From IMG/VR virus record IMGVR_UViG_3300042368_001013, positions 27,795 to 91,794 of that record: DNA of 64,000 nt, one strand, 5' to 3'. The notes beneath the pieces were generated by a model. It made no database searches and had not been told where the DNA came from. It was given only the letters and a program-made list of their open reading frames with translations. The translations under genes and the position numbers were made by a program. Position 1 is the first letter of the stretch. Every line of letters begins with the position of its first letter. Of this stretch, positions 13,571 through 63,657 are shown piece by piece. Source of the stretch: a virus.

Positions 13571-13600
13571 AAAAACCCCGCCGTTTTGGCGGGGTTTTTT
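13571..13600. terminator. Bidirectional intrinsic terminator
   Basis: AAAAACCCCGCC-GTTTT-GGCGGGGTTTTT between convergent genes. Confidence 0.9.
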
Positions 13601-14903
13601 AATTTACGTTTATTTGTAGATTTATTGTAGTTGGACCTACAAATTCAATATAAATTTTTCTTGAACTTGTCTGAGTTTTAGTATAAATTAACCCAGATTG
13701 GTCAAATCCAGGGACTCCCATTAAATAAATTCCCGAAGTTAATGGTACTGTCTTAGCAGAATCAACATAATAATTTACATTGAATCCTTTTAATGAGGGG
13801 TGACTGAAGTCTAATTTGAATCCCGTAGTGATATTAAAATTCAATTCACTTGTTACTTGAAGAGTATCTGCACCTTCTGCATTTGTTTTTAACGCATAGA
13901 CATATGATGGTGTATATGTTCCTTCAAAATCATAACTTCCAGCCAAAATTTCTTCAATAAAGACAAAAACTGATCCATCATATGGTAGAGCTTTATCTGA
14001 TGTTGCTGCATTGAATCCATTGTCAGTTAATCTTGAACAATATAAACAAGGTATCCATTGAGCGCTATAAGTACGACTTTCATATTGTGCTCTTAAAAAT
14101 GCTTGTAACTGATTTTGATTTTCAAAACATTCAATTTGATTACCATCTGCATCAAAAACAACATAGCACCCAAGTTGTTTTCTTGTTTTGGATAAAATTT
14201 CTGGATTTGCATTTCCACGTAAAAAATGTGTAAAAGTAATGCCGGATGTGGAAAGATTTTGATTTGTTAATGCTATGTCAGTATATACTAATTCTCTATT
14301 ATCTTTTAATTTTACAACAGAATTGATTTTAATTTTTCCAGCATTTGTTGTTGAACCAGATATCTCAATATATTCTTCTTTTCCAAATTGAGAGCCAACA
14401 ATACCAAAATTTACAAAAGACTTACTTTGGTTTATAGTTAAATTATTTTCAATATAATTCTGAGCAGTAGCTCCACCACTATAACCACTAGTATATTGTG
14501 GGTAGTCAATAAAATTACTAGAATTGTAAAATTTATAATTTGCTAAACTTGTAAACCCAGATTGTATTCCACCAATTATAATTTTATCATTACCAGTTAA
14601 ACTTTCTAAAGAAAAAACTCCACTTACATCCACAGAATAATCATAATTGGGATCATAATAATTTGCATTATTGAGTGCAAATGTAGTTCCAACTGGCGTA
14701 TTTTTAAAAACTTTTTGTAAATAAGTAAGATCGGAAATATTATAAGATGCTGTATAGTCTATAAAACAACTGGTTCCTATAACAGAAACATTTGGTTTAG
14801 AATTTACATATCCTTGTAAAAATACTGGATCAAAAGTTGAACCATAAATTTTTACGCCATAATTGATTAAATTCTTACAAGCATTAAGAGCATATAATGA
14901 CAT
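13599..14903 (-). CDS. Putative virion structural protein, S/T/G/N-rich
   Basis: Composition; 'YIEISGSTTNAG' segment; late operon with 14905..15852. Confidence 0.55.
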   Translation of the reverse strand: MSLYALNACKNLINYGVKIYGSTFDPVFLQGYVNSKPNVSVIGTSCFIDYTASYNISDLTYLQKVFKNTPVGTTFALNNANYYDPNYDYSVDVSGVFSLESLTGNDKIIIGGIQSGFTSLANYKFYNSSNFIDYPQYTSGYSGGATAQNYIENNLTINQSKSFVNFGIVGSQFGKEEYIEISGSTTNAGKIKINSVVKLKDNRELVYTDIALTNQNLSTSGITFTHFLRGNANPEILSKTRKQLGCYVVFDADGNQIECFENQNQLQAFLRAQYESRTYSAQWIPCLYCSRLTDNGFNAATSDKALPYDGSVFVFIEEILAGSYDFEGTYTPSYVYALKTNAEGADTLQVTSELNFNITTGFKLDFSHPSLKGFNVNYYVDSAKTVPLTSGIYLMGVPGFDQSGLIYTKTQTSSRKIYIEFVGPTTINLQINVN

Positions 14904-14904
14904 A

Positions 14905-15852
14905 TTACGAAGCCATGTAGGTTATAATTTGTGTTCCTGTATTTGATACTGCATACAACTTATTTGTATTTTGTATATCAAGGAAAACATTTTCTCCTGG
15001 ATCTAGGGCATATCCATATGAGGAACCAACTAGTCCAGATGTGTTACCAACATAGATAAAATCAGTATTTGTAGAAAGTGCTTTTATGTTTATACCAGTC
15101 AAACATGTAAAGCCACCTGAATCCATTTGTTGTACTGCAGCAGATGTTGGGGACACTCTACCAGTTTTGAATGTTGTTGGTCTACCTACTCCAAGAGCGG
15201 TAAAATCTGTACGCAATCCTACTATTTGTCCATAAATTGCGGTTATACCATTTGTTATATCATTATTGGCAATACCTACAGTGTTACCAACAGTTACTGC
15301 TACGGCAGTTGCACCAGAAATTCCGGCAACCAAAACAGTCGAAGGAATTGTGGCTGTAAATGTTGCTCCAGTTATGGCAACCTTCAGAGCATCACCACTG
15401 GTTCCAATTGACCAGCCAGTTGCACCGACCAATTTAACAAAGATTGAAGTTGCGCCAGATGGGCCATAAGTAGAAATTGAATCAACGGTTGTATATAATC
15501 TACCACCAGTAATTTCAATTTGACTTCCTGTAAAAGTTTTTACGTATACAGGTGATCCAGTAGAACCTGTTGCAATAATAGTTCCGCTTATGGGAAGAGG
15601 ATAACCACCACCAGTACCCTGTACGGTAACAAGCCCGTTGAATCCTGTAATAGAAGCGGTGAGACCACCTGCAACTGTTACTGGGAATGGATTTGCAGAG
15701 GAAGTTGTAGTTGCTACCCCCGTAATACCATGTGCCAATTTAAAGATTTGGAAGTGGGCAGTTGTTCCAGAATATTGAGCTACATCTGTAGCTACAGCAG
15801 CAGTTAATCCAGCTGTTTCAATAATAATGTTTGGGTCTGTATCTGAGGCCAT
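14905..15852 (-). CDS. Putative virion fibre/decoration protein, very rich in T-G/G-x-T
   Basis: Repeated ITG/ATG/GAT peptide motifs; C-terminal beta-sandwich-like IKALSTNTDFIYVG...YALDPGE; late box 15879-15886. Confidence 0.6.
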   Translation of the reverse strand: MASDTDPNIIIETAGLTAAVATDVAQYSGTTAHFQIFKLAHGITGVATTTSSANPFPVTVAGGLTASITGFNGLVTVQGTGGGYPLPISGTIIATGSTGSPVYVKTFTGSQIEITGGRLYTTVDSISTYGPSGATSIFVKLVGATGWSIGTSGDALKVAITGATFTATIPSTVLVAGISGATAVAVTVGNTVGIANNDITNGITAIYGQIVGLRTDFTALGVGRPTTFKTGRVSPTSAAVQQMDSGGFTCLTGINIKALSTNTDFIYVGNTSGLVGSSYGYALDPGENVFLDIQNTNKLYAVSNTGTQIITYMAS

Positions 15853-15940
15853 TTGATATCCTATAAATAGTTCTAGAATATTTAGAAGAGTAAAATGATT
15901 GCTTTTATTTGATTATAGTATATTATAGTGTGGAGAAAAT

Positions 15941-16174
15941 ATGTATATAGACGATTCAGCTAAAGAAAAATTTTCTGTTAAAGTTTTACAGAGAGTATCT
16001 AAAACAAAGTTATCTTTTATGGAATGTGTTTTGGAACTCAGTGGAGAAATGGGATTAGATCCATCTGCCGCAGGAAAACTTTTAACTAAACCTCTTATTG
16101 AAAAAATTGAACAAGAGGGTAGAAAGTTAAATATCCTAAAAAGTAAAAAAAGTCCAAGATTGCCAGTTGACTGA
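15941..16174 (+). CDS. gp33: Late transcription co-activator gp33
   Basis: Size, LSFMECVL...LLTKPLIEKIEQEG..LNIL motif, position before gp32. Confidence 0.85.
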   Translation: MYIDDSAKEKFSVKVLQRVSKTKLSFMECVLELSGEMGLDPSAAGKLLTKPLIEKIEQEGRKLNILKSKKSPRLPVD

Positions 16175-16194
16175 CTCAATTGGAACGTTATAAT
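16167..16194 (+). promoter_or_regulatory. Sigma70-type promoter for gp32
   Basis: TTGACT-N16-TATAAT. Confidence 0.75.
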
Positions 16195-16233
16195 TAAAAT
16201 AGAAAGGCCGAGGTAGATCCTCGGGTAATTAAT

Positions 16234-18533: not shown

Positions 18534-19148
18534 TTAAGGGGTACTTGGGGTTGGTGTTACTTCTTGTTTGAATTCTCTAAAACCAAATGTAACAGCATAT
18601 TTTAGATATTTATCGACAAATGCCATACTCATTTCAATTGGTTGTGTTTCTACAGGAAAAACTTCAAAAAAAGTTAATGTATTGTTAGTTCCACCATTAG
18701 GATTTAAAATTTCAATATTCATTGTACAGTTCTTAACAACTCTATCATAATATGGAGTTACATATGCTCCAAAATATAATGGGCTTGCGGAATTTGCTCT
18801 CGGGGATCTATAAAATACATTGAACCAATTATTAAAAAAAGTCAATAAATGTTGATCATTAGTTATTGGAAAAATTAATTGAACACCAAATCCTCCGCTT
18901 AAGATATCTTGACTGCGGGGAACAAATCTTCCTTGACCAAATCCCGATAAATTATCTTGAACCGTATTTATTGCTCTTGGACCCAATGCCATGTATTCGG
19001 CCTGCACATAACCACCGCTATCGTCCCCTAAAACTACGCCAGATGGCAAACCGCTAAAGGACACTTTAAATCTATTGGCTAATTGTAATCCATTATGGTC
19101 AGTAAAATATTGTTTTATTGATGTTATTGGATTAGTTGGTGTTGGCAT
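18534..19148 (-). CDS. Tail-tube-like baseplate protein (gp54-like)
   Basis: GL.LANRFKV, FFNNW, YYD, FEVFP..TQPIEM, VTFGFRE; synteny gp4-gp54-gp26. Confidence 0.7.
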   Translation of the reverse strand: MPTPTNPITSIKQYFTDHNGLQLANRFKVSFSGLPSGVVLGDDSGGYVQAEYMALGPRAINTVQDNLSGFGQGRFVPRSQDILSGGFGVQLIFPITNDQHLLTFFNNWFNVFYRSPRANSASPLYFGAYVTPYYDRVVKNCTMNIEILNPNGGTNNTLTFFEVFPVETQPIEMSMAFVDKYLKYAVTFGFREFKQEVTPTPSTP

Positions 19149-32607: not shown

Positions 32608-32609
32608 AC

Positions 32610-43419: not shown

Positions 43420-43485
43420 ATTTTATAGTACTCTAGAATAAAGTCAAATAAATAATCTTGACTTTTCTTAAAGGTAATTTATAAT
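43420..43485. promoter_or_regulatory. Divergent sigma70-type promoters for uvsY (-) and the glycosylation island (+)
   Basis: (-) TTGACT-N16-TAAAAT at 43447..43420; (+) TTGACT-N16-TATAAT at 43458..43485. Confidence 0.75.
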
Positions 43486-45737: not shown

Positions 45738-46596
45738 ATTATCAATATACGGTTTTTGGCCAAACTTTAATTACGAAGATAACTTTTTTAAATCATTGTT
45801 CCAAGACATTTATGGAAATGATTTTTCATATACAACAAATCCGTATGAATCTAATTTATGTTTAATTGGTGAAAATTTAATTCCTCCGGGGTTAGATAGA
45901 TCAAAAACCAAATTGATATCGCATATAGCGGAGCCAAAAAACCCGTTCTATGACATTGCAGATTATCATTTTACATTTGATCCAACAGATTTGCCAAATG
46001 GAAATATTAGAATTCCTTTGTGGATGCTCTACATCAACAAATACAATTTAACAAGCGAACAATGCCCAGCTTTACCAGTTAATATAGATACCTTAACAAA
46101 CAATCAGTGGTTTAATCATCCAAAAACTGAATTTTGTGTGACTCCATTTTCTGCAGTACATGCAAATAGAATGGAATTTTGGCAAAAATTTAATCAATAC
46201 AAAAAGACCGATGGGTTTGGATTGCCATTTGGAAACGGAGATCAACAGAGAGATCAACTTAAAAAATATTTTGTAATTGCTCCATACAAATTTTGTATGG
46301 CGTATGAAAATACAAATAAACTTGGTTATGTCACAGAAAAAATACTACAAGCAAAAACTTCTGGATGCATCCCAATATATTGGGGTAGCGATCATGTCTT
46401 AAAGGATTTTAATCCAAATAGCTTTATCTATGTAAATAATTTTAACTCAATAAATGATGTGTTAGAATATGTTAAACGTGTAGACAATGACCCAAGTTTA
46501 TATGAATTGATTTATAAAAGTCCTATTTTTCATTACGATATTAATGAAAAATATGAAGAAATTAAAAGATTAATAAAGAAAACTATTTCAATATGA
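45730..46596 (+). CDS. GT10 alpha-1,3/4-fucosyltransferase
   Basis: YKFCMAYEN....GYVTEKI..A...GCIPIYWG, DFNPNSFI. Confidence 0.9.
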   Translation: MIKLSIYGFWPNFNYEDNFFKSLFQDIYGNDFSYTTNPYESNLCLIGENLIPPGLDRSKTKLISHIAEPKNPFYDIADYHFTFDPTDLPNGNIRIPLWMLYINKYNLTSEQCPALPVNIDTLTNNQWFNHPKTEFCVTPFSAVHANRMEFWQKFNQYKKTDGFGLPFGNGDQQRDQLKKYFVIAPYKFCMAYENTNKLGYVTEKILQAKTSGCIPIYWGSDHVLKDFNPNSFIYVNNFNSINDVLEYVKRVDNDPSLYELIYKSPIFHYDINEKYEEIKRLIKKTISI

Positions 46597-47348
46597 ATGT
46601 ACAAGTTATCACCTTACCGGAAGCAACGGAAAGACAAAGTAAAATAAAAAATAATTTTAACAACCACAATATTGGTTTTGATTTTAAAAGTGGAATAAAA
46701 TTAAATGAATGTTTTTTTATAGAAGAAAATGGAAAACATTTTGTTGTATGTGATAATATAAAATTGGAAATAAATGAAAATTTGCTTTTACAAAATACGA
46801 ATAGAAACTGGATTCGTTTTGGTGAAATAGCAGCCTACATAGCACATTATAAATTATGGAAAGAGTTTTTAAACTCAAATAACGAAATAGTTATTATATG
46901 CGAAGATGACGCAAACCCACAATCTGATTTGCTTTTTTTAAATTCTTTTGACTATTCTAATATTGATTTTTTAAATTTACAAAATGTAACTGCACACAAC
47001 CAACCAAAAATAAATTTGTACCGAGAACCATTTGTAAAAATAAGTAATAAACTTGTAGAATACAAAACACAGTTACCTATTTTGTGCGAAGGTTTGGCAG
47101 CATACTTAATTACTAAATCTGGAGCAAATAAACTGTGTTCTTACATTGAAGCCAACGGTTACGTTGGTCCTAATGACTGTATGATCACCAAATTGTGCCA
47201 AAATGGAATAATGAGTATTCATGCCCCCGTAGATGTTGAAAAGTGTTTTGGGTTAGATGCTGAAACTTATGAAACTTCTTATACACATTCCGGGGCATTT
47301 AAAATTTTTAAACAATTTAACCAAATGGTATTGCAAGTAAGGGAGTAA
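46593..47348 (+). CDS. GT25 glycosyltransferase
   Basis: VITL..A.ER, GEIA.Y..H..LW, ICEDD, AYLITK.GA.KL. Confidence 0.85.
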   Translation: MNVQVITLPEATERQSKIKNNFNNHNIGFDFKSGIKLNECFFIEENGKHFVVCDNIKLEINENLLLQNTNRNWIRFGEIAAYIAHYKLWKEFLNSNNEIVIICEDDANPQSDLLFLNSFDYSNIDFLNLQNVTAHNQPKINLYREPFVKISNKLVEYKTQLPILCEGLAAYLITKSGANKLCSYIEANGYVGPNDCMITKLCQNGIMSIHAPVDVEKCFGLDAETYETSYTHSGAFKIFKQFNQMVLQVRE

Positions 47349-47349: not shown

Positions 47350-48117
47350 ATGTCTTATCTTCTGATAGAAAAAAGAACTGGTGGTTTGATGTCCTGCTTC
47401 AATTTAATCGCAGCGAGTCTAAGTTATCTTTATGATAATCAAATAAACAATTTTTATTTTATTTGGAACAGCGCCACTTATCAAAATAATCCACATGACA
47501 ATTTATTTGATAAGTTTATTTTTAAACAAACCCAACCAAGCGGCACATCTCCTTGGTCAAAAGTTATTAATGTTTTTGAATTAAGCCACCATTTTTATGC
47601 TCCAGTCGTACCACAAGAAAAAGTTGTAAGAATACACAATATATTGCAATATTATCATTATTTTTCAAATCCAATATATCAAGAACTCTTCAATACAGTA
47701 CCAAATAAACCAAAAACATTGGGTGTCCACGTAAGAAGAACTGACCACGCTATTCACGGAGATATATTGCCGGATGAATACTATTTTGAAAAAATAGATG
47801 CCAATTTAAAAACCGGAAAATATGAAAATATATTTTTAGCTACTGACGAATATAAAATTGTAGATGCATTTAAAAACAAGTATGGTAATATGTTATTTAC
47901 AAATGAGAATATAACAAGAAGCAATAATGACGTAACTATTCCATTTTGTAATTATGAAGACAAAGACAAGCTAGCATTAGATATTTTTAAAGAAGGAATT
48001 GCTCTTTCTAGGTGTGACAAAATGATTTTTACTAGTAGCAATATACCGAATTACGTAAGGTTTTTAAGTCCAAACATGGATTGCGAACAGATAGATACTC
48101 ATATACAGTTTAGGTAA
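47350..48117 (+). CDS. NodZ/GT23-like GDP-fucose-dependent transferase
   Basis: GG..S.F, LGVHVRRTD, IFLATD, LS.CD..I...SN. Confidence 0.8.
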   Translation: MSYLLIEKRTGGLMSCFNLIAASLSYLYDNQINNFYFIWNSATYQNNPHDNLFDKFIFKQTQPSGTSPWSKVINVFELSHHFYAPVVPQEKVVRIHNILQYYHYFSNPIYQELFNTVPNKPKTLGVHVRRTDHAIHGDILPDEYYFEKIDANLKTGKYENIFLATDEYKIVDAFKNKYGNMLFTNENITRSNNDVTIPFCNYEDKDKLALDIFKEGIALSRCDKMIFTSSNIPNYVRFLSPNMDCEQIDTHIQFR

Positions 48118-48120: not shown

Positions 48121-48687
48121 ATGAATAAAATAGAACATTTTTATAAAACTATCGGAGAAGATTGGTTTCCTTATACAAATTTATACAAATTTATGGTTGA
48201 AAGGTTTGACTCTGGATCTAAATTTGTAGAAGTTGGTTCGTGGAAAGGTAGAAGTGCTGCTTTTATGGCGGTAGAAATACATAACTCAGGGAAAAATATA
48301 CACTTTGATTGCGTAGATACATGGAAGGGATCCGGTAATGAAGATTATCACCAAAATGATCCAGCTGTTCAAAACAATTTGTTATATGAAACATTTTTAA
48401 AAAATACGGAAACCGTAAAACATATAATAAATCCTGTTAGAGCAACTTCAGTAGAGGCATCAAAGATGTATGAGGACAACAGTTTAGATTTTGTATTTAT
48501 TGATGCATGCCATTTATACGAATGCGTAAAGGAAGACATAGAACACTGGTATCCAAAAGTAAAAGTAGGCGGCATGATTGCAGGTCACGATTTTCATTAT
48601 CCTGAAGTACAAAAGGCAGTATTAGAAAAATTTGAAAATGTATTTTACGATCAGCCCGGTGATTGTTGGGTTTTACAAAAAAATTGA
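48121..48687 (+). CDS. Class I SAM methyltransferase (Methyltransf_24-like)
   Basis: VEVGSWKGRS, VDTW, FVFIDA.H.YE.V..DI..W.PKVK.GG.IAGHD. Confidence 0.9.
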   Translation: MNKIEHFYKTIGEDWFPYTNLYKFMVERFDSGSKFVEVGSWKGRSAAFMAVEIHNSGKNIHFDCVDTWKGSGNEDYHQNDPAVQNNLLYETFLKNTETVKHIINPVRATSVEASKMYEDNSLDFVFIDACHLYECVKEDIEHWYPKVKVGGMIAGHDFHYPEVQKAVLEKFENVFYDQPGDCWVLQKN

Positions 48688-48693: not shown

Positions 48694-49581
48694 ATGCAGG
48701 AAGTACGTGGATTAATTTTTTATAGCAATGGACATAATGGTGATATACACTATTCTAGAAATTTTGTAAAAGATATTATGTCTCAAATGCCAATTCAAGC
48801 AGAATATAAATTTAATTGTTCCGCAAAATTATTAAAAGACATATTAAATTTATCTTTTAATAATTTTAATATCTTTCAATTTAATGATATGGAAATTTTA
48901 TACGACGAATCAACAAAATGTTTATTTGTCAATACGTGGGTTGGTTCTTCCAGAGCAAAATTTATTCAAAATGAAGTTGGTTGTTCTTTAACAGCAAATT
49001 ATAATAAATTTAAAGAAATATATTTTAATTTAAATTTGGAATTAAAGTCACCAGATTTTTACGTTCCAGATGTAAATTGGTCTAAGTATGACACCAGCTT
49101 TGTAGATGAATTTATATCAAAAAATGTATTTAAAAAATACATTTTAATAGCAAACGGAGAAGTGTTATCCGGCCAATCATCTTTTATTGATTTTAATCTT
49201 ATTGTTAAAAATTTATCTATTAAGTATACTGACGTTTGTTTTATTATGACAGATATTAAGAATAAAATATACCAACCAAATGTATTTTACACATCTGATT
49301 TTATTAAAACCGATGGTGGGGATTTAAATGAAATTGGTTACTTAAGCACTAAGGTTAATTTTATTATTGGTCGCGGGAGTGGTCCATTTTGTTTTGCTCA
49401 TAATAAAGATAATTTATTTGACAAAAATAAAAAGTTTTTGGCTATTACAAAATATAGAACTGATGGCCTATGGGCTTTACCAGAACAATTGCCCACAGAG
49501 CAAGCAAAACAACTTTGGACGAATATGTTTGACAACAACACAATTTATAGTATTATTTCAAAAGAAATAGAAAGCAATTAA
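48694..49581 (+). CDS. Putative GT-B glycosyltransferase (GT9-like)
   Basis: H.GD near the N-terminus, IIGR.SGP near the C-terminus; context. Confidence 0.5.
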   Translation: MQEVRGLIFYSNGHNGDIHYSRNFVKDIMSQMPIQAEYKFNCSAKLLKDILNLSFNNFNIFQFNDMEILYDESTKCLFVNTWVGSSRAKFIQNEVGCSLTANYNKFKEIYFNLNLELKSPDFYVPDVNWSKYDTSFVDEFISKNVFKKYILIANGEVLSGQSSFIDFNLIVKNLSIKYTDVCFIMTDIKNKIYQPNVFYTSDFIKTDGGDLNEIGYLSTKVNFIIGRGSGPFCFAHNKDNLFDKNKKFLAITKYRTDGLWALPEQLPTEQAKQLWTNMFDNNTIYSIISKEIESN

Positions 49582-49582
49582 A

Positions 49583-49939
49583 ATGAATATTGACGTTGCA
49601 TTAAATTTAGAATTGATTATTAAAAATAAAGTCAATGAAATTTTAAACCCAAAAACCGGTCTTCCAAAATTACCAGTTGATTTAGCAGTATCTGATAATT
49701 TGGGAGAGGTAATTGAAAAACTTGTCATTCTTCATATTAGAACTTGGTTTTTAGAAGATATGGCAGGAGTAGCCAAAACTGACGCAGAACTGGCTGACAT
49801 CAAAAGAAAAGTAGACATTTGTTTTAAGCAAAAGCGACCCATGTATGTTCAAGCTATAAATAAAATGATAGATTCGGCCATCAAAGGTGAAAGATCTCTA
49901 CAAGAAGACAGTGTAAAAATTTATAAAAGTGTTGAGTAA
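49583..49939 (+). CDS. Small helical protein (DUF4254-like)
   Basis: GEVIEKL.IL.IR.W.LED...R....IN. Confidence 0.55.
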   Translation: MNIDVALNLELIIKNKVNEILNPKTGLPKLPVDLAVSDNLGEVIEKLVILHIRTWFLEDMAGVAKTDAELADIKRKVDICFKQKRPMYVQAINKMIDSAIKGERSLQEDSVKIYKSVE

Positions 49940-50664
49940 TGAAAAAAGATCTTATTGTTAAAATTTTAACATTAGCAAATAAAAAGAAAGAAGGGCATAT
50001 AGGAAGTTCTCTTTCAATTTTAGATATTTTGTTAGTGTTGTACAAAGACTATATCAATAAAAACAATAAATTTGTTTTGTCCAAGGGACACGCTTCCCTT
50101 GGACTTTTTGTTGTATTAGAATATTTTGGATTACTTGAAAGTGACTTAAACACATTTTGTGATTTTAATTCTGAATTTGGAGGACACCCCTGCAATAAAG
50201 TAAAACATGTAGAAACATCTACTGGATCTTTGGGGCATGGTTTACCAATAGCGGTTGGTATGGCTCTTGGAAATAAAATACAAAAGGTAGAAGGCAATGT
50301 TTATGTGTTAATTGGTGACGGCGAATCAAATGAGGGATCTGTATGGGAAGCCGCGATGTTGGCATCACATCACAAACTAAACAATCTTGTTTGTATTATG
50401 GATTATAATCACTCTGGAGATAGAGCAATACGTATTGATTCTGTTTATGAAAAATTTAAAGCTTTTGGCTGGGATTGTGTCGAAATAGATGGTCATAGTG
50501 AAGCACAAATAAAATCTGCACTTAGCGTCACAAATAAACCACTTTTTATTTTGGCTAATACAATAAAAGGAAAAGGTATTAAGGTTATGGAAAATAATCC
50601 AGAGTGGCACCACAAAGCACCAAATGACGAAGAATTAAAATTGTTTATTGAAGAATTAAGATGA
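49939..50664 (+). CDS. Transketolase, N-terminal (ThDP-binding) subunit
   Basis: GHIGSSLS, LSKGHA, STGSLGHGL, GDGESNEGSVWEA, TIKGKG, WHH. Confidence 0.93.
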   Translation: MKKDLIVKILTLANKKKEGHIGSSLSILDILLVLYKDYINKNNKFVLSKGHASLGLFVVLEYFGLLESDLNTFCDFNSEFGGHPCNKVKHVETSTGSLGHGLPIAVGMALGNKIQKVEGNVYVLIGDGESNEGSVWEAAMLASHHKLNNLVCIMDYNHSGDRAIRIDSVYEKFKAFGWDCVEIDGHSEAQIKSALSVTNKPLFILANTIKGKGIKVMENNPEWHHKAPNDEELKLFIEELR

Positions 50665-51536
50665 GAAAACAGTTTACAAAGACTTTACAGAATATACTTT
50701 ATTCAAATAATAAGACCTGTCTTCTTTTAGGAGATATTGGAGTATTTGGTTTCAAGAATGAGCTGACTAACTTGCCAGACAGGGTTTACAATATAGGAAT
50801 TCTAGAGCAATCTACTATAGGAACGGCAGCTGGCTTGGCTAAAACTGGACTGATACCCTTTGTTCACACGATTGCACCATTTTTGGTTGAAAGAAGTCTT
50901 GAACAATTAAAAGTAGACTTTGGTTATCAATGTTTAAATGGTAATTTTATAAGTGTAGGTGCATCGTATGATTACGCATCTCTTGGTTGCACACATCACT
51001 GCCCCGGAGATATTATGTGTTTAATGTCCATTCCAAACATGGAAATTGTTTGTCCGGGAACATCAAAAGAGTTTGATAGTTTGATTACACAGTCTTATAA
51101 CAATGGAAATCCAACGTATTTTAGATTAAGCGAATACGAAAATGATTTGGACAATATTACGGAATTTGGGAAAGCAAAGCTAATAAAAAAAGGATCTAAA
51201 GCAACAATTGTTTGTTTTGGAAATATGTTAAAAAATATTTTAAAGGCAGTTGAAGATGTAGACGTTACTGTATTATATTACAATACTATAAAACCATTTG
51301 ATCATAAACTACTTCTAAATAATTTTAGTGAAACAATAATAGTATGTGAACCGTTTTATGAAGGTAGTGCCAATATTTTAATAACAAAAAGTTTAGAAAG
51401 CAAATCATATAAGCTTTTTAATATTGGTATTCCACATAAATTTTTAACCAACTATGGTAAAAAAGAGGATCATGATTATTATTTAAACTTAGATGAAAAA
51501 TCTTTAAAAGAAAGAATATTGAAGTGCTTGATATAA
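50661..51536 (+). CDS. Transketolase, C-terminal subunit
   Basis: YNIGILEQ, ERSLEQLK, LGCTHH, P.YFRL. Confidence 0.92.
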   Translation: MRKQFTKTLQNILYSNNKTCLLLGDIGVFGFKNELTNLPDRVYNIGILEQSTIGTAAGLAKTGLIPFVHTIAPFLVERSLEQLKVDFGYQCLNGNFISVGASYDYASLGCTHHCPGDIMCLMSIPNMEIVCPGTSKEFDSLITQSYNNGNPTYFRLSEYENDLDNITEFGKAKLIKKGSKATIVCFGNMLKNILKAVEDVDVTVLYYNTIKPFDHKLLLNNFSETIIVCEPFYEGSANILITKSLESKSYKLFNIGIPHKFLTNYGKKEDHDYYLNLDEKSLKERILKCLI

Positions 51537-52546
51537 TTTATAATGATGGAAAATTAAGTTACCAAAACATAAACATAAATTTTTCTTTATTAAAAGATAA
51601 AAAAGTTTTAATAACTGGTGCTACTGGATTAATAGGTTTGCACATTTTATCAATATTAAAAACGGCACAACTAGATTATAATATTAAAATTTTTTGTTGG
51701 GTTACTGGTCCAATTGACCCAAAGATTAGCCCAATCTTCAATAACTGTGAGTTACTTGTTGGTGATTTGACAAATATTAATCAAGATATTGAAACAAATT
51801 TTAATAAACACTTTGATTTGATAATCCATTCGGCTGGCTACGCCCAACCACAAAAATTTATCGGAAACAAAGTAAATACAATACAATTAAATACTTCAGC
51901 TATTATTGATTTGTTTAAATTATTAAAAGACAAAGGTACATTTGTTTTTTGCAGCACCAGTGAAATTTATAGTGGATTGATTAAAGAAAATATTTTTGAG
52001 CAAGAAATAGGTACTACTACACCAGAGCACCCAAGAGCCTGCTACATCGAAAGTAAACGCTGTGGGGAGACTATATGTCACTCTTTTGCTGAACGTGGGT
52101 ATTCGGTCAAGATAGCGCGCATAAGCCTAGCTTATGGTCCCGGAGCCAGAGCAAACGACACCAGAGTTATGCAGAACATAATCGACAAAGCGATAAAAGA
52201 AAACAAAATAGAACTGTTAGACAGTGGATCTTCTATTAGAACTTATTGTTATGCTGCTGACATAGCAGAAATGTTATGGAATATTTCTTTACTTGGCAAA
52301 AAAACTGTGTATAATATAGCGGGAATGTCTAGAATCACAATTAAAGAATTGGCTGAAAAAGTTGCCAATAAACTAAATTGTGAATTAATAATTCCTGCAG
52401 ATGATAAATTTAGTTTATCAGGAAACCCATCATTAGTAAATTTAAATATTGAAAAATATATGATAGAATTTAATAAAAAAAATTTTACTAATTTTGAAGA
52501 TGGTCTTGATAAAACCATACAATGGCAAAAATATATTTTAAAATAA
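51524..52546 (+). CDS. NAD-dependent NDP-sugar epimerase/decarboxylase (UDP-GlcA decarboxylase-like)
   Basis: ITGATGLIG, STSEIY, PRACYIESKRCGET, RTYCY..D. Confidence 0.85.
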   Translation: MLDIIYNDGKLSYQNININFSLLKDKKVLITGATGLIGLHILSILKTAQLDYNIKIFCWVTGPIDPKISPIFNNCELLVGDLTNINQDIETNFNKHFDLIIHSAGYAQPQKFIGNKVNTIQLNTSAIIDLFKLLKDKGTFVFCSTSEIYSGLIKENIFEQEIGTTTPEHPRACYIESKRCGETICHSFAERGYSVKIARISLAYGPGARANDTRVMQNIIDKAIKENKIELLDSGSSIRTYCYAADIAEMLWNISLLGKKTVYNIAGMSRITIKELAEKVANKLNCELIIPADDKFSLSGNPSLVNLNIEKYMIEFNKKNFTNFEDGLDKTIQWQKYILK

Positions 52547-52547: not shown

Positions 52548-53720
52548 ATGTTAAGCAAACCAATTAAATTAGTAAAAGACACAATCACACATCAAGAAAT
52601 TGATCAGCTGTGTGACTGGTTAAAAACGTACCCACAACTTACTAAAGGTAAGTTAACAGAAGAATTTGAACAGTTGTGGTCAGACTGGTTGGGAGTAAAG
52701 TACTCTGTATTTGTAAATTCAGGTTCTTCAGCAAATTTAGCAATGCTTTATGCACTTAAAGTTGCCAACAGATTGAAGAATAATAAAATTATTCTTCCCT
52801 GTGTATCATGGGTCACCACTGTAAGCCCCGCAATCCAATTTGGTATGGAACCAATTTTGTGTGATACAGACAAAGATGGATTAGGATTAGATGTTGAGTA
52901 TTTTGAAAAACTTTGTAAAGAACACAATCCAGCATGTGTAATGTTGGTACATGTATTGGGTGTGCCAAATAAGTTAAATGAAATTTTAGATATATGCAAA
53001 AAGTATGACGTAATTTTGTTAGAAGATTCATGTGAAAGCGTTGGAACGTTGTATAATAGTAAACAAACAGGAACGTTTGGTATTATGTCTTCGTTTTCAA
53101 CTTATTTTGGCCATCACTTTTCAACTATAGAAGGTGGTTTTGTCTGTACGAATGATTTTGAATTGTATGAGATATTAAAATCAATTAGGTCGCACGGATG
53201 GAGTAGAGACTTATCAGTTGAAACAAAAGAAAAACTTCAAAAAGAAAACAACATAGACAATTTTAGAAATTTTTATACTTTTTATTATCCAGGATTTAAT
53301 TTAAGAGCAACAGATGTACAAGCTTTTCTTGGCATAAACCAGTTAAAAACTTTAAATACAAAAAATCAAAAAAGATACAACAATCTTGTACTTTACGACT
53401 CATTAATTAAAAATAATTATTGGAAGTTAAAATATGAAGGATTTGTTAGCAATTTTGCATATCCAATAATCCATCCCAATAAAAATAAAATTGCTCAAAA
53501 TTTACAAAACAACAACATTGAATGCAGACCACTTATTTGTGGAAGCATGTCAAGACAACCATTTTTTTACAAGCAATATGGTTTAAAACAATATCCATTC
53601 TCAGACGTTGTACATGATTATGGCTTGTACTTGCCAAACAATCCAGACATGACAGAAGAGGATATTGTTTATATTTCAAATATAGTAAACGAAACAATTA
53701 ATAAGGATACCAATGAATAA
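52548..53720 (+). CDS. colD: PLP-dependent GDP-4-keto-6-deoxymannose 3-dehydratase (ColD-like)
   Basis: DegT-family fold (VNSGSSANL, EDSCES.G) with His at the Schiff-base Lys position (FGHHFSTIEGG); adjacent to fcl and gmd. Confidence 0.75.
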   Translation: MLSKPIKLVKDTITHQEIDQLCDWLKTYPQLTKGKLTEEFEQLWSDWLGVKYSVFVNSGSSANLAMLYALKVANRLKNNKIILPCVSWVTTVSPAIQFGMEPILCDTDKDGLGLDVEYFEKLCKEHNPACVMLVHVLGVPNKLNEILDICKKYDVILLEDSCESVGTLYNSKQTGTFGIMSSFSTYFGHHFSTIEGGFVCTNDFELYEILKSIRSHGWSRDLSVETKEKLQKENNIDNFRNFYTFYYPGFNLRATDVQAFLGINQLKTLNTKNQKRYNNLVLYDSLIKNNYWKLKYEGFVSNFAYPIIHPNKNKIAQNLQNNNIECRPLICGSMSRQPFFYKQYGLKQYPFSDVVHDYGLYLPNNPDMTEEDIVYISNIVNETINKDTNE

Positions 53721-54657
53721 AAATGCAAAAATATTTGTAGCTGGCCATAGAGGTTTAATTGGCTCTGCTATTGTCAGAAAGCTTGAAGAACAAGGATATA
53801 CTAACATAATCAAAAGAACCAGACAAGAAATGGATCTCAGAGATCAACTAGCCGTTTGGCATTTTTTCCAAAAAGAAAAACCAGAATATGTATTTCTTTG
53901 TGCCGCAAAAGTAGGTGGAATAGGTTGGAACAAAGAGTGTCCAGCAGAATTTACTTATGATAATTTGCAAATTCAAAATAATGTAATTCATAGTGCAAGT
54001 TTATCTGGCACCAAAAAACTTTTGTTTTTGGGTTCAGCGTGTATCTATCCAAAAATTACACCACAGCCTATTAAAGAAGAATATCTTTTAACTGGTGAGT
54101 TAGAAGAAACAAATGCAGGATATGCATTGGCAAAAATTGTTGGTTTAAAAATGTGTCAATATTATAAACAACAATACGGTTTCAATTGCATTTCATTGAT
54201 GCCCGCAAATGCATACGGAATTAATGATAATTTTAATATTCAAAAATGTCACGTAATTCCAGCGTTGATTAGAAAATTTATTAATGCAAAAGAAAACAAT
54301 CATCCAACAGTAGAGTGTTTTGGTGATGGTACACCAACAAGAGAATTTATTTGTTCTGACGATATGGCTGACGCATCTGTTTATCTAATGAACAATTATG
54401 ATGGCTCTGATATTATCAATGTTGGTACTGGAATGGATGTAACAATAAAAGAATTGGCAGAAACCATCAAAGAAAAGATAGGTTATACTGGTGAAATCGT
54501 ATGGGACACTACTAAACCAAATGGAACACCTCTAAGAAAACTTAGTAATGATAGGTTAAAGAGTTTGGGATGGTCAGCAAAAATTAATTTGAGCGAAGGA
54601 ATTTCTCGCACCATTAAATGGTATATGGATAATAAAGAAACATATGATAGAAATTAA
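53713..54657 (+). CDS. fcl: GDP-L-fucose synthase / ColC-like epimerase-reductase
   Basis: AGHRGLIGSA, AAKVGGI, LGSACIYP, YA.AK, HVIPALIRK, GDGTPTREF. Confidence 0.93.
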   Translation: MNKNAKIFVAGHRGLIGSAIVRKLEEQGYTNIIKRTRQEMDLRDQLAVWHFFQKEKPEYVFLCAAKVGGIGWNKECPAEFTYDNLQIQNNVIHSASLSGTKKLLFLGSACIYPKITPQPIKEEYLLTGELEETNAGYALAKIVGLKMCQYYKQQYGFNCISLMPANAYGINDNFNIQKCHVIPALIRKFINAKENNHPTVECFGDGTPTREFICSDDMADASVYLMNNYDGSDIINVGTGMDVTIKELAETIKEKIGYTGEIVWDTTKPNGTPLRKLSNDRLKSLGWSAKINLSEGISRTIKWYMDNKETYDRN

Positions 54658-54669: not shown

Positions 54670-55671
54670 ATGAAAAAAGCATTAATTATCGGTGCAAACG
54701 GTCAAGACGCATCATATCTTGCGGAGTTTCTGCTAGATAAAAAATATGAAGTTCATGGTACAATTCGTAGAAATTCCGTACCAGAATCACAAACAACCAG
54801 AATACAATATCTTCATGATAAAAATTTAATTAAATTGCATTACGCAGATTTAACAGATCCAATTAGTATTGAATCTGTAATCCAGAGATTGCAGCCAGAA
54901 GAAATTTATCATTTGGCAGCACAATCTCACGTTCAGATATCGTTTGATTTACCACACTATACACTTGAGGTCAATGGCGGTGGTACTCTTTCTGTTCTTG
55001 AGGCAGTCAGACGATTTTCTCCAGAATCAAAGGTATACCACGCCGCAACTTCAGAAATGTTTGGTAATGCTAAAGATGCTGACGGATATCAAAGAGAAAC
55101 AACTCCCATGATTCCAGTTAGCCCATATGGATGTTCAAAATTATATGCCCATACTTTATGCAGAAATTACAGCCAAGCATATGGTATTTTTGCTTGTTCT
55201 GGAATTTTATTTAACCACGAATCTCCAAGACGCGGCATTAACTTTGTCACAAACAAAACAGCTTTAGAAGCAGCTAAAATTAAATTAGGATTATCTAATA
55301 AGTTGGTTTTAGGGAATCTTGGATCACAACGTGATTGGGGGCATGCCAAAGATTATGTAAAGGCAATGTGGTTAATGCTTCAACGACCATCTCCCGATAG
55401 CTATGTAATCGCAACAGGAGAAACCAGGTCTGTTTGTGAAATGGTAAATTACGTTTTTAATAGACTTAATTTAGATCCTAAAAAGTATATTATAACAGAT
55501 GAAAAATATTGCAGACCCGAAGAATTGCATTATTTAAAAGGTGATGCTACAAAAGCAAAAACAGAACTTAATTGGGCACCAGAAATTTCATTTTATTCTA
55601 TGATGGATGAAATGGTAGATCATTGGATTTCTGTATTACAGAATAAAAAACTTGATTTTACAATTGTATAA
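54670..55671 (+). CDS. gmd: GDP-mannose 4,6-dehydratase
   Basis: GQDASYLAEFLL.K.YEVHG, LAAQSHV, SPYG.SK, GILFNHESPRRG..FVT, RDWGHAKDYV. Confidence 0.96.
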   Translation: MKKALIIGANGQDASYLAEFLLDKKYEVHGTIRRNSVPESQTTRIQYLHDKNLIKLHYADLTDPISIESVIQRLQPEEIYHLAAQSHVQISFDLPHYTLEVNGGGTLSVLEAVRRFSPESKVYHAATSEMFGNAKDADGYQRETTPMIPVSPYGCSKLYAHTLCRNYSQAYGIFACSGILFNHESPRRGINFVTNKTALEAAKIKLGLSNKLVLGNLGSQRDWGHAKDYVKAMWLMLQRPSPDSYVIATGETRSVCEMVNYVFNRLNLDPKKYIITDEKYCRPEELHYLKGDATKAKTELNWAPEISFYSMMDEMVDHWISVLQNKKLDFTIV

Positions 55672-59026: not shown

Positions 59027-59311
59027 ATGTTTAAAGGACAGTATAAACCAAAAAATGGCACCGGACAGCCTATACTCTATTCTAGAGGGGATGTTGTTCT
59101 GAATCAAGGTAGAGTATATGAATGCCTAGAAACCACTGTAGAAAGCCCTCTACAGAGTCCTGCGAGTTGGAAGACTACTGGTATAGATCATCCAATAACT
59201 AGCTCTAGCCCGCCTTTAAAGCCGATTGAAAATCAAACTTGGATTAGCACATCTGGAAAACAATATATCTATTTTAAAGATTCTAACGGATCTCAATGGA
59301 TTGAAACTTGA
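59027..59311 (+). CDS. Small late protein with CBM5/12-like carbohydrate-binding module
   Basis: Y..GDVV..QGRVYEC...T..SP.....W; TATAAATA upstream. Confidence 0.6.
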   Translation: MFKGQYKPKNGTGQPILYSRGDVVLNQGRVYECLETTVESPLQSPASWKTTGIDHPITSSSPPLKPIENQTWISTSGKQYIYFKDSNGSQWIET

Positions 59312-60184: not shown

Positions 60185-60186
60185 TC

Positions 60187-61514: not shown

Positions 61515-61520
61515 TGTTTT

Positions 61521-61946: not shown

Positions 61947-61948
61947 GG

Positions 61949-63196
61949 ATGAATATGCACAAGTTAACGTTATCTATGATTGTAAAGAACGAAGCACCAA
62001 ACATTGAAAGGTGCTTAGAATCTGTAGCCCCGTATATCGATTATTATATTATTTGTGATACTGGATCAACTGACAATACCAAAGAAATCATTAAAACTTT
62101 TTTTGATAAAAAAGGAATTCCCGGAGAAATATTAGATCATGAGTGGAAGCATTTTGGTCATAATAGATCGTTGGCATTAGAAGCTTGCATGGGCAAAACC
62201 AAGTGGGCTTTGATGATTGATGCTGACGATAATCTTGCTGGAAAATTTCCAGTAGACAAACTGGATGATGATCTAGACGGTTACATTGTAAAGATAAAAA
62301 GAGCTTCATTTGAATGGTATCGGGCTCAAGTTTTTAATATTGCTAAGACAAAATGGTGGTATGAAGAGCCTCTGCATGAATATGCAGTTTGTCGTCAGCC
62401 AATGAATATTCATAAACTTGAAGGTGACTATTACTGGGAAGTTAGAACAGAAGGTTGCCGTTCAAGAGAAACAAATGGAGATGATAGAGAAAAGTATAGA
62501 AGAGATTATAATTTTCTAAAGAAATATCTAGAAGAACATCCTGATAATATGCGCACACAGTTTTATCTGGCCCAATCTGCTTTTGATGCACATATGTTCG
62601 AAGAAGCAGAAAAAGAATATCTAAAGAGAACCACTATGGGTGGTTGGGTTGAAGAAGTGTTTTATTCTTGGATGCGAGTTGGAATTTGTAGAGAAATATT
62701 AGACAGACCACTTGAACAAGTTATAGATGCATTTTTAATGGCGCATGAAACTCTTCCTGTGAGAGCTGAGCCATTTTGGCAAATGTCTTGCATTTACAGA
62801 AAGCATAATAGACCAAAAAATGCGTTTATAATGGCGAATCATGCATTAACCATTCCATTGCCAGACAATAATATTCTTTTCGTAGACACTAACGTTTATA
62901 CTTGGGGAGCATTAGATGAAATTGCAACAACTGCAGCACATGTTGGTAAATACCATATGGGTCTTGCTGCATGTGACAAATTGCTTTCAGAAAAATATCT
63001 ACCTCAATCAGAAAGAGAAAGAATTTTGAATAACCGAAAGCTTTATCATGATACTGTTGTAAAATTTAATGAACAATTGCTCAAACAACAAGAAGAAATT
63101 GTAAAAAAGCAAGAAGAAACAATTAAACAAGTAAATGAATATGCTGTAAAAACTACTTTAAATATTGATTTGTCAAAGCCCTTAGTAAAGCTTTAA
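61949..63196 (+). CDS. GT2 glycosyltransferase with C-terminal TPR repeats (protein/peptide-GT architecture)
   Basis: LSMIVKNE..NI.RCLESV, DTGSTD.T, F..NR..AL, IDADD, LHE; FYLAQS TPR helices. Confidence 0.9.
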   Translation: MNMHKLTLSMIVKNEAPNIERCLESVAPYIDYYIICDTGSTDNTKEIIKTFFDKKGIPGEILDHEWKHFGHNRSLALEACMGKTKWALMIDADDNLAGKFPVDKLDDDLDGYIVKIKRASFEWYRAQVFNIAKTKWWYEEPLHEYAVCRQPMNIHKLEGDYYWEVRTEGCRSRETNGDDREKYRRDYNFLKKYLEEHPDNMRTQFYLAQSAFDAHMFEEAEKEYLKRTTMGGWVEEVFYSWMRVGICREILDRPLEQVIDAFLMAHETLPVRAEPFWQMSCIYRKHNRPKNAFIMANHALTIPLPDNNILFVDTNVYTWGALDEIATTAAHVGKYHMGLAACDKLLSEKYLPQSERERILNNRKLYHDTVVKFNEQLLKQQEEIVKKQEETIKQVNEYAVKTTLNIDLSKPLVKL

Positions 63197-63213
63197 ATAA
63201 TCTCTAAATATTT

Positions 63214-63246
63214 AATAATGACCTAGAATATAGGTCATTATTTTTT
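63214..63246 (+). other. Perfect 12-bp hairpin followed by a T-run (terminator or 5' leader structure)
   Basis: AATAATGACCTA-GAATA-TAGGTCATTATT. Confidence 0.6.
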
Positions 63247-63255
63247 GGAGAATCA

Positions 63256-63657
63256 ATGGCTCAAAACAATGACATTATTGTAGTAAAGGGAGACACTGCT
63301 CGTTGGTCTGGATTTTTTACAGGTCTGACGAGCGGTTCTACATTTGATTTTGGTGGAACCACCCTATATATGCAAGTTAGAACTGGTTATTATAATGAGC
63401 CTCTTGTGGTAGGATATACACAATATATTGAGACAAATGCCACTTTAGCTTTTCCAAAAGGTATTACTGGTGGAATTTCTGCAGCAGCAGCAGGTGGAAC
63501 TGTTAATTTTTGTATTGGGTCTTCTTTTGCAAATAATTTAACTGCAGATAGAATGTGTAAATATGATGTAAAAGTTTACCATTCTTCTATTCAAGACTTA
63601 CAAACAATTTTACGTGGAAACATACAAGTATTGTCTAACGTATCACAAATAACATAA
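63256..63657 (+). CDS. Putative virion protein (BppU-N-like beta domain)
   Basis: DI.V.KGDT, FDF.G.T..MQVR, YDV, ILRG.I.V..NVS; GGAG RBS. Confidence 0.6.
   Translation: MAQNNDIIVVKGDTARWSGFFTGLTSGSTFDFGGTTLYMQVRTGYYNEPLVVGYTQYIETNATLAFPKGITGGISAAAAGGTVNFCIGSSFANNLTADRMCKYDVKVYHSSIQDLQTILRGNIQVLSNVSQIT

Follow-up and report, generated by a model that had tools for sequence, protein, structure and literature searches.

What does the GT2-TPR gene at 61949-63196 of this phage act on, and does its product work together with the fucose/colitose sugar island of ~12 kb at 43.5-55.7 kb? The window, i.e., the whole stretch of 64,000 nucleotides analyzed here, is part of a 91.8-kb contig from an uncultured T4-like phage, whose closest cultured relatives are Melnitz phage and the cyanomyoviruses. 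A sequence-only reading had proposed that many virion proteins (gp13, gp14, gp18, gp53, a gp27-like protein, and others) carry a grafted short G-x-T/T-G sequon, that the GT2-TPR enzyme primes all of these proteins, and that the whole particle is thereby coated with glycan.

Sequence and predicted structure assign the product of 61949-63196 (+ strand) to the protein/peptide type of glycosyltransferase: it combines a GT-A domain with TPR and stands closest to GmaR, SunS, and ThuS, and in this respect the earlier reading was confirmed. The GT2 domain matched PF00535 (E 4e-13), a phmmer search against PDB returned GmaR (5e-11) and SunS (2e-9), and the profile search gave GmaR at 1e-23 and SunS at 3e-18, with TPR over positions 175-297 (1e-20 to 1e-30). 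Foldseek, run with the AF2 model (pLDDT 94.3), placed SunS/ThuS on top at full length (E 5e-16) and teichoic-acid GT-A enzymes at ~1e-6. The DADD motif at 91-94 (D91-A92-D93-D94) is invariant in A3, while in A2 D91-A92 is invariant and D93 nearly so. We infer the target of this soluble SgtA/GmaR/SunS-type enzyme: a protein substrate would be bound by the TPR half, while the DxD-containing GT-A half would put the first sugar on Thr or Ser.

The gene begins 2 nt past regA, lacks a promoter of its own, and is co-transcribed with the replication genes gp45-gp44-gp62-regA. Its location in the replication module, together with the existence of phage GT-A enzymes that glycosylate 5hmC DNA (10.1101/2023.12.21.572611), raises the idea that the enzyme and/or the island glycosylates phage DNA (hypermodified bases). 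We consider this extremely unlikely, as a search of the contig and of the 126-kb, 117-kb, and 62-kb relatives turned up no thymidylate-synthase-family hydroxymethylase, both the fold and the TPR half agree with peptide transferases rather than JGT-like enzymes, and members of the fucosyltransferase families lengthen glycans instead of modifying bases. Expression with early and middle replication genes would also suit an enzyme whose acceptor comes not from the phage but from the host (flagellin, pilin, or a collagen-like protein of the host surface); GmaR, the closest solved relative, is a flagellin O-GlcNAc transferase, and the bacterial homologs modify the cell's own proteins. Such a target seems improbable, however, given that the synteny of the gene is kept in 7/7 relatives, with the fiber module directly downstream in every one, and that G-x-T collagen-like fibers are encoded nearby in Tunturi_5, L006, and L007.

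The genomic neighborhoods of homologs support a tie between the GT2-TPR family and Gly-x-Thr acceptors, as judged from gene sequences in bacterial loci and two phage lineages. Collagen-like runs were defined as 10 or more G-x-y triplets in a row in which Thr makes up at least 40% of one position, and 41 of the 80 bacterial loci with a GT homolog contain such a run. It lies no more than 2.5 kb from the homolog in 37/80 loci (median 809 bp), and among full-flank loci 28 were near and 3 far (binomial p 1e-11). Collagen (PF01391) is the commonest neighbor family of the bacterial homologs, and the loci come from Actinomycetota, Pseudomonadota, Myxococcota, Cyanobacteriota, and Armatimonadota. Among phages, the GT/(Gly-x-Thr)n pairing is found in two lineages: Tunturi_5, where the GT lies 3.7 kb from a 1469-aa fiber with 79 G-x-T against 30 expected (z 10), and the relatives L006 and L007, in which collagen tracts of the G-x-T kind follow 2-3 kb after the GT. 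The adjacency of GT homologs to collagen-like genes in bacteria is an association and no proof of substrate.

As for the proposed coat, the motif strings on which it was built do exist: the translations confirm them in gp18, gp13, gp14, gp53, the gp27-like protein, 13599-14903, 14905-15852, 36347-37087, and 63256-63657. Raw motif density per residue is ~1.6x higher in virion proteins than in other proteins. Against within-protein shuffles, the virion proteins contain 95 G-x-[TS] where 83 are expected (1.15x, z 1.5) and 98 [TS]-G where 83 are expected (1.19x, z 1.9), and the non-virion proteins reach 1.25x and 1.27x, respectively. Since these ratios are no higher in virion than in non-virion proteins, composition explains the quoted strings and most of the suggested enrichment in late proteins. 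The scarcity of motifs in gp32, gp45, gp47, gp62, and regA was likewise seen, but is predicted by their low Gly and Thr content. G-x-T alone does exceed expectation in virion proteins (65 vs 43, 1.5-fold, z 3.8), and the gp14 motifs sit in its non-conserved C-terminal tail, both of which favor a grafted sequon. Yet cyanophage S-SM2, with no GT2-TPR homolog in its whole genome, has the same excess (82 vs 56, 1.46-fold, z 3.7) and a gp14 tail even richer in motifs; the G-x-T ratio is 0.92 in Melnitz and 0.93 in T4. In addition, the motif densities of gp13, gp14, gp15, gp18, gp19, gp20, and gp23 equal those of their orthologs in S-SM2, Melnitz, and T4, and no core virion protein passes multiple-test correction. 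Equal motif density in phages lacking the GT is what the sequence-only reading had itself named as refuting a sequon across the virion, and we regard a coat primed in this way as very unlikely.

The likely acceptors are the fiber-module proteins adjoining the GT gene, not gp13, gp14, gp18, gp23, or gp53, and it is in fiber-module proteins that the G-x-T excess is strongest (z 3.9-6.2). A hairpin with a T-run, read from the sequence at 63214-63246 (+), lies between the GT gene and this module, with TAAATA boxes at 63194-63199 and 63205-63210. The first candidate acceptor is a 133-aa fiber-module protein (63256-63657, +; phrog_1084) encoded directly after the GT, with 8 G-x-T against 1.7 expected (z 5.3), the sole protein standing out after multiple testing of motif counts. 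Its homologs also show the excess (z 5.8 and 3.9), and four of its G-x-T motifs are invariant (GDT, GxT, GxTGG, GGT). The Atlas leads for this protein were BppU_N and LtfC, and it is possibly a BppU_N/LtfC-like adaptor.

The next gene (63657-63998, +) encodes the N-terminus of a collagen-like tail fiber, recognized by its identity to the fibers of relatives (60-97% to the N-termini in L002, L003, L006, and L007). The contig end cuts it after 342 nt, so that any G-x-T collagen tract is visible in relatives only, where the full fiber measures ~650-690 aa. The fibers of these four relatives contain 42-53 G-X-Y triplets, and that of L006 also has a G-x-T tract. Counting against a fiber acceptor, the collagen tract of the L003 and L007 fibers has Gln, Arg, or Lys at Y and almost no Thr, and a G-x-T tract is lacking altogether in L003. 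A possible further acceptor is the Gly/Thr-rich conserved late protein at 14905-15852 (- strand; G 14%, T 16.5%; TAAATA at -32), which has the second-highest motif excess (z 2.4-2.8), with 18 G-x-[TS] against 10.8 (z 2.7). Its versions in 24 contigs are 57-81% identical, a good many of the G and T residues being invariant, and its AF2 model has a pLDDT of 38. T44 of the quoted GITG is not conserved: it is Cys in most relatives, which also speaks against the grafted sequon.

The sugar island was confirmed as well, and all of its genes lie on the + strand. It is preceded by a sigma-70-type promoter (TTGACT-16-TATAAT, 43458-43485, +; 11/12, the best-scoring site in 42.9-62.8 kb), and only one TAAATA occurs within 60 nt upstream of an island gene start, at -53 of the first gene. 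The transferase part comprises a GT25-like protein with a weak match (43502-44137; PF01755 E 0.002, below cut-off), a GT11 of the alpha-1,2-fucosyltransferase family (44134-44919; PF01531 E 3e-20), two GT10 fucosyltransferase-family proteins (44904-45737 and 45730-46596; PF00852 E 6e-9 and 2e-18), a GT25 (46593-47348; PF01755 E 4e-19), and a candidate FUT8/NodZ-like (GT23-like) fucosyltransferase (47350-48117; PF19745 E 2e-5 and PF05830 E 9e-4, both below cut-off). These are followed by a Methyltransf_24 protein of the sugar O-methyltransferase type (48121-48687; PF13578 E 9e-20) and two soluble proteins of 295 and 118 aa (48694-49939), without TM segment and with no match in Pfam, PHROG, or NCBIfam. 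A transketolase pair (49939-51536; PF00456, PF02779, PF02780) matches the split-chain transketolase PDB 6yak (E 2e-50), and a UXS-like SDR nucleotide-sugar dehydratase or decarboxylase (51524-52546; PF01370 E 1e-33) matches 8v4g (7e-30) and UDP-glucuronate decarboxylase (3e-27). The last three genes encode a ColD-type GDP-4-keto-6-deoxymannose 3-dehydratase (52548-53720; PDB ColD/WbdK 6e-60 vs CDP E1 3e-37, with GHH aligned to SHH of ColD), a GDP-L-fucose synthase (Fcl) or ColC-like reductase/epimerase (53713-54657; NF047922 E 5e-130, 433 bits vs a cut-off of 500), and a GDP-mannose 4,6-dehydratase (Gmd; 54670-55671; PF16363 E 3e-111).

Whether the island belongs with the GT2-TPR enzyme is less sure. 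Of 48 long GT2-TPR homologs, 9 have a GT25 domain fused to the module, 2 a GT10 domain, and 1 a Methyltransf_24 domain, and because of these fusions a functional link between enzyme and island is plausible. For five of the island proteins, among them the two GT10 proteins, 43502-44137 (in P0183), and 48121-48687 (in P0200), a fusion of this kind contains a homologous domain. The claim that the GT primes and the island extends retains a plausible link but loses its virion-wide acceptor set. Counting against a joint system, the island lies 6 kb from the GT under its own early promoter. Under its main rival, the target of the island is the host surface: it would remodel the glycans there (LPS, LOS, or capsule) in the course of infection, e.g., for a superinfection block or altered recognition, with the GT2-TPR enzyme acting separately. 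Such remodeling, which we hold to be possible though rather unlikely, is the usual interpretation of cyanomyovirus LPS-type gene sets, and the families present, GT10, GT11, and GT25 along with Gmd, Fcl, and ColD, are typical of O-antigen and LOS synthesis. The early promoter, the hypervariable transferase part (GT11 37-77% identical among relatives vs 80-84% for Gmd in four relatives), and a location that Melnitz and S-SM2 leave empty also agree with it. Furthermore, the T4-like marine cyanomyoviruses P-SSM2, S-SCSM1, and S-SCSM2R carry GT10, GT11, GT25, and GT2 with NDP-sugar epimerases in a variable region, without GT2-TPR and interpreted as host cell-wall modification (PMC12801897), so the island need not depend on the GT2-TPR enzyme. 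The island of the window differs from those sets by its ColD-type dehydratase and split transketolase. Against remodeling, it lacks an initiating phosphoglycosyl transferase, flippase, polymerase, ligase, or any membrane protein (no TM segment in any product), several of its families are fused elsewhere to a protein-type module, and for the cyanophage sets, too, remodeling is a supposed function.

Among known systems, SunS and ThuS (glycocin S-glycosyltransferases) and Listeria GmaR (flagellin O-GlcNAc transferase) give the best sequence and full-length structural matches and share the order of a GT-A domain and then a TPR-like helical domain, but the identity is no higher than 15-20%; SunS acts on a Cys in a small peptide and GmaR on flagellin, and no glycocin precursor or flagellin gene lies near the phage GT. 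Chloroviruses carry capsid glycans with virus-encoded GDP-fucose synthesis, and mimiviruses modify their fibrils and collagen. These giant viruses resemble the phage in having their own nucleotide-sugar synthesis (Gmd plus a reductase) and soluble transferases, with glycans placed on their own structural proteins in the cytoplasm, a likeness drawn at the level of function; the viruses, hosts, and enzyme families differ. Mycobacteriophage glycosyltransferases are reported to decorate the phages' own virion proteins (Freeman et al. 2023, cited in PMC12619734 and PMC12801897), as proposed here, although the acceptors described there are C-termini of capsid and tail-tube subunits, whereas the capsid and tube proteins of the window phage carry no special motif load and the candidates are fiber proteins.

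The most likely reading, to which we give an even chance, is a two-part phage-encoded system, deduced from sequence, in which the GT2-TPR enzyme and the sugar island O-glycosylate the phage's own tail-fiber proteins and not the whole virion. The enzyme would act on the 133-aa G-x-T protein and the collagen-like fiber encoded directly downstream, and on fiber proteins encoded past the contig end, where (Gly-x-Thr)n tracts are known from relatives. The island, read from its early promoter into soluble products, may then, less surely, make GDP-fucose and GDP-colitose-type sugars, and its GT10, GT11, GT25, and GT23-like transferases and methyltransferase may extend the first sugar into a variable glycan. 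The closest counterpart is the exosporium collagen-like glycoprotein BclA3 of Clostridioides difficile with SgtA, a 358-aa GT-A enzyme with 4 TPR that adds beta-O-GlcNAc to Thr in the collagen repeats (PMC7157674). The two are likened by description: a GT-A domain with C-terminal TPR (~360-415 aa), an enzyme gene adjoining a collagen-like gene, a family tied to Gly-x-Thr repeats, and a first sugar on Thr or Ser that other enzymes extend. By contrast, the phage enzyme is encoded beside tail-fiber genes, and the main collagen tract of the nearest relatives' fiber has few Thr. By this analogy, fiber O-glycosylation in this phage would probably be SgtA/BclA3-like, perhaps extended by the island.

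The virus is a T4-like phage known from a 91.8-kb IMG/VR contig, which is approximately 50% complete by CheckV and of which the window forms the right-hand two thirds. PHROG and Pfam scans identified a T4-like gene set in the window, comprising among others baseplate, neck, terminase, sheath, tube, portal, protease, scaffold, and major capsid genes, as well as those of the UvsW and gp55 regions, gp47, gp46, gp45, gp44, gp62, and regA. Its nearest relatives in culture are Melnitz, a Methylophilales phage, and cyanomyoviruses, and the identity of the portal proteins is only ~48%. At the DNA level, almost nothing in cultured phages is similar, and a megablast search of them with the structural region gave a single 126-bp match.

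The gene at 61949-63196 (+) encodes a protein with an N-terminal GT2 (GT-A) domain (PF00535, E = 4e-13) followed by tetratricopeptide repeats (TPR). Its DxD motif is DADD at residues 91-94, with all four residues (D91, A92, D93, and D94) invariant in one alignment of homologues (A3); in another (A2), D91 and A92 do not vary and D93 hardly does. Five of the six positions of the nucleotide-binding motif DTGSTD (residues 37-42) are also invariant. Among proteins of solved structure, GmaR (5e-11) and SunS (2e-9, with an alignment spanning residues 6-228) are closest in sequence, and these matches improve to 1e-23 and 3e-18, respectively, with a 38-sequence profile, positions 175-297 of which match consensus TPR proteins (E = 1e-20 to 1e-30) and the TPRs of OGT (1e-7). 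The AF2 model (pLDDT 94.3) has paired helices over residues 179-347, and the best full-length Foldseek matches are SunS (5e-16) and ThuS (3e-15) over ~395 columns, followed by teichoic-acid GT-A enzymes at ~1e-6. The start of the gene is 2 nt from the end of regA, and no promoter-like box precedes it; TAAATA boxes and a hairpin with a T-run follow the gene, which occupies a position common to all seven related contigs. The family is very large (17,448 representatives at E ≤ 0.001); among cultured phages, Tunturi_5 has the homologue nearest to this protein (gp35, 33% identity). Together, the sequence and the predicted structure support the assignment of 61949-63196 as a putative SgtA/GmaR/SunS-type GT-A plus TPR glycosyltransferase (hereafter the GT) at the head of a fibre module.

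Virion glycosylation is established for actinobacteriophages and giant viruses. The sequence-only reading had proposed that the GT primes a short G-x-T/T-G sequon across the whole virion, and the motif strings that it quoted, where checked in the translations, are indeed present in the genes concerned. We counted G-x-[TS], [TS]-G, G-x-T, and T-G in 78 ORFs against 300-1000 within-protein shuffles. Per residue, the motifs are ~1.6-fold more common in virion proteins than in the remaining proteins because the Gly, Thr, and Ser content of virion proteins is higher; the claimed enrichment beyond composition was not recovered, with observed/expected ratios in virion proteins of 1.15 for G-x-[TS] (z = 1.5) and 1.19 for [TS]-G (z = 1.9), versus 1.25 and 1.27 in non-virion proteins. 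G-x-T is the only motif raised in virion proteins (65 observed versus 43 expected, z = 3.8). In the structural modules of comparison phages, the corresponding G-x-T ratio is 1.46 in S-SM2 (z = 3.7), 0.92 in Melnitz, and 0.93 in T4; the GT2-TPR profile has no match in any of these three genomes, while the Tunturi_5 positive control was matched.

Motif density was also expected to exceed that of phages lacking the GT, and this expectation failed, as gp13, gp14, gp15, gp18, gp19, gp20, and gp23 equal their orthologues in Melnitz, S-SM2, and T4 (for gp23, 3.4 motifs per 100 aa versus 4.0, 3.4, and 3.5 in the three orthologues). The suggestion that motifs sit in non-conserved parts of structural proteins holds for gp14, the motifs of which do lie in a non-conserved C-terminal tail, but the gp14 tail of S-SM2 is longer and richer in motifs. 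Only the 133-aa protein encoded immediately after the GT (63256-63657) survives multiple testing (eight G-x-T versus 1.7 expected, z = 5.3); in Melnitz, S-SM2, and T4, z is at most 2.8 for every individual protein. The virion-wide sequon was rejected on the shuffles, the comparison with the three phages, and the orthologue densities: there is no excess over composition, GT-less phages are equally dense in motifs, and both outcomes had been set in advance as refuting it. Such a sequon is thus not supported by the protein sequences. The arrangement also differs from virion glycosylation of the actinobacteriophage type, in which the capsid and tail tube carry acceptor tails, whereas the motif densities of gp23 and gp19 here equal those of GT-less phages and the GT lies outside the head/tube gene block. 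Separately, DNA glycosylation was considered and rejected, as no ThyA-family gene was found in this contig or in three relatives, all four contigs being incomplete.

The sheath homologue (30730-32031) has only 433 aa versus 660-750 aa in Melnitz, S-SM2, and T4; its match to a PHROG sheath family is limited to the last ~90 residues, ~180 residues align to the S-SM2 and T4 sheaths by BLASTP, the N-terminal ~245 aa match no sheath tested, and Thr makes up 13.6% of the whole protein. Four separate genes match the tail-tube family phrog_45 (18534-19148, 32035-32607, 32580-33164, and 40218-40766), the second and third of which are adjacent, overlapping, and placed straight after the sheath gene. The gp23 homologue has 473 aa versus 427 aa in Melnitz and contains a Cys/Gly-rich stretch, GICGFFGLCGSCGFSGGN, at aa 153-170 (38649-38702). 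Between the prohead protease and scaffold genes, 36347-37087 encodes a 246-aa Gly-rich protein (16% Gly, with a G8 run) with no family match, possibly a component of the prohead core or an internal protein. For the Gly/Thr-rich late protein at 14905-15852, no firm match was obtained with Atlas, Pfam, PHROGs, or NCBIfam, and AF2 reached a pLDDT of 38 from a 14-sequence alignment. A 94-aa Ser/Thr-rich protein (59027-59311) between gp46 and gp45 has its own TATAAATA late promoter, is kept in all relatives, and shows a weak CBM_5_12 match (E = 0.0085).

Scanning contigs with a 10-sequence profile identified 80 bacterial loci with homologues 32-41% identical to the phage GT. In a Pfam tally of 106 flanking ORFs, Collagen (PF01391) ranks first, with 10 members and a best E of 1e-90, and PGRS ranks second. 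A six-frame scan looked for 10 or more G-x-y triplets in a row with at least 40% Thr at one position. Such Thr-rich runs, typically (G-A/P-T)n of up to 359 triplets, occur in 41 of the 80 loci, in 37 of these within 2.5 kb of the GT homologue (median 809 bp); when the count is restricted to loci with complete flanks, the run is near in 28 and far in three (binomial p = 1e-11). A few strand assignments may be wrong, given naive ORF calls and a six-frame scan in high-GC loci; runs of 10-359 triplets together with Pfam Collagen matches are not artefacts. The pairing occurs in actinobacterial taxa including Streptomyces, Kitasatospora, Actinomadura, and mycobacteria, and in Acidovorax, Methylobacter, Lysobacterales, Myxococcales, a cyanobacterium, and Fimbriimonadaceae. 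The association of the GT2-TPR family with (Gly-x-Thr)n collagen-like genes thus spans at least five phyla, a result that stands independently of how the phage is read. It mirrors the arrangement in C. difficile, in which sgtA adjoins bclA3 and SgtA, a GT-A plus four-TPR enzyme, adds beta-O-GlcNAc to Thr of collagen-repeat peptides (PMC7157674). In the mycobacterial loci, the GT2-TPR homologue adjoins Gly-rich proteins of the (G-G-T)/PGRS type instead of classic collagen repeats (seven Pfam PGRS and two PE matches), and the mycobacterial homologues might act on PE_PGRS-like proteins.

In the relatives of this phage, the GT gene is followed by the 133-aa protein, a collagen-like tail fibre of 650-690 aa, and then virion structural proteins. 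The window stops 342 nt into the fibre gene, and the candidate acceptor neighbour visible here is the G-x-T-rich 133-aa protein alone. This protein belongs to phrog_1084 and retains four invariant G-x-T motifs across 47-95% identity; a language-model match to BppU_N and LtfC, both fibre-docking, serves as a lead only. The strongest G-x-T excess among the proteins tested is in the fibre-module proteins of the relatives (z = 3.9-6.2). In the main collagen tract of the fibre, position Y is occupied by Gln, Arg, Lys, or Asp, and Thr is almost absent. Relative L006 has a second tract, GNTGATGPAGATG..., within the same fibre gene, and relative L007 has an additional 539-aa fibre in which 12 of 17 triplets are G-x-T; no G-x-T tract was found in relative L003. 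In Tunturi_5, a tail fibre of 1469 aa containing more than 100 G-x-T triplets (79 G-x-T versus 30 expected, z = 10) is encoded 3.7 kb away from the GT homologue gp35. A Gly-x-Thr collagen-like gene thus lies near a homologue of the GT in Tunturi_5, L006, and L007 as well as in the 41 bacterial loci. Judging from these sequences, the GT probably glycosylates fibre proteins, which would be its candidate acceptors. Also in Tunturi_5, four tandem paralogues of ~283 aa (gp30-gp33, 11394-14812 of its locus) separate the GT2-TPR gene from the giant fibre.

The sugar island at 43.5-55.7 kb encodes, in gene order, a weak GT25-like protein, GT11, two GT10, GT25, and a weak FUT8/NodZ-like transferase, followed by Methyltransf_24, two proteins annotated without function, a split transketolase, and a UXS-like SDR. 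It ends with a ColD-type 3-dehydratase (52548-53720; ColD/WbdK, 6e-60), in which GHH aligns to SHH of ColD, placing His-His where aminotransferases have Lys; a single Fcl/ColC-like enzyme (53713-54657; NF047922, 433 bits versus a cut-off of 500), predicted to act in a route that could be that of fucose, of colitose, or both; and Gmd (GDP-mannose 4,6-dehydratase, 54670-55671; PF16363, E = 3e-111). The earlier label of a fucose/colitose island is reasonable because of this gene content. No TM-like segment was found in any island protein, and none matched Wzx/Wzy- or ABC-type machinery (initiating phosphoglycosyl transferase, flippase/transporter, polymerase, or ligase). These observations support a soluble fucose/colitose system. 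The best-scoring sigma-70-type promoter of the region directly precedes the first island gene, and that gene is the only one of the island with a TAAATA late box near its start, at -53. The island occupies the same place in four relatives (Gmd 80-84% identity; GT11 variable, 37-77%), and nothing is found at the corresponding site in Melnitz and S-SM2. The split-chain transketolase pair within it (49939-51536; best PDB match 6yak, a split-chain transketolase, 2e-50) is unusual for a glycan cluster and may indicate a sugar that is branched or extended by two carbons.

The island may extend a glycan started by the GT on fibre proteins, or it may instead act on host glycans, as similar GT10/GT11/GT25 sets in cyanomyoviruses have been read as host cell-wall modification (PMC12801897). 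Co-occurrence of the GT and the island is uninformative, because every relative with one also has the other. Gene fusions bear on the question, as many GT2-TPR module homologues sit within proteins of 600-1900 aa (e.g., a 1882-aa Bradyrhizobium protein), and the domains fused in 48 long homologues include GT25 (in nine), GT4/GT1 (five), GT10 (two), GT9 (two), and Methyltransf_24 (one). Five island proteins, namely both GT10, both GT25-like proteins, and the methyltransferase, have counterparts 25-39% identical inside such fusions. These Rosetta-stone fusions suggest that the families share one pathway and are not proof for this phage. We propose only tentatively that the tail fibres of this abundant, uncultured T4-like clade receive a methylated O-glycan with a fucose/colitose cap, started by an SgtA-like primer and extended by a hypervariable 12-kb island.

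We found no literature report of glycosylated virions in T4-like phages, nor of glycosylated phage tail fibres. If this reading of the clade is true, fibre "glycotypes" would vary among close relatives as O-antigens do among bacteria. Glycosylated fibres would mean that receptor-binding organelles could gain a second, non-templated layer of variability, which would bear on host range and protease resistance. The host has long been taken to be the target of the LPS-type islands in marine T4-like phages, and, if its fibres are glycosylated, this clade would offer a testable alternative target for such islands.
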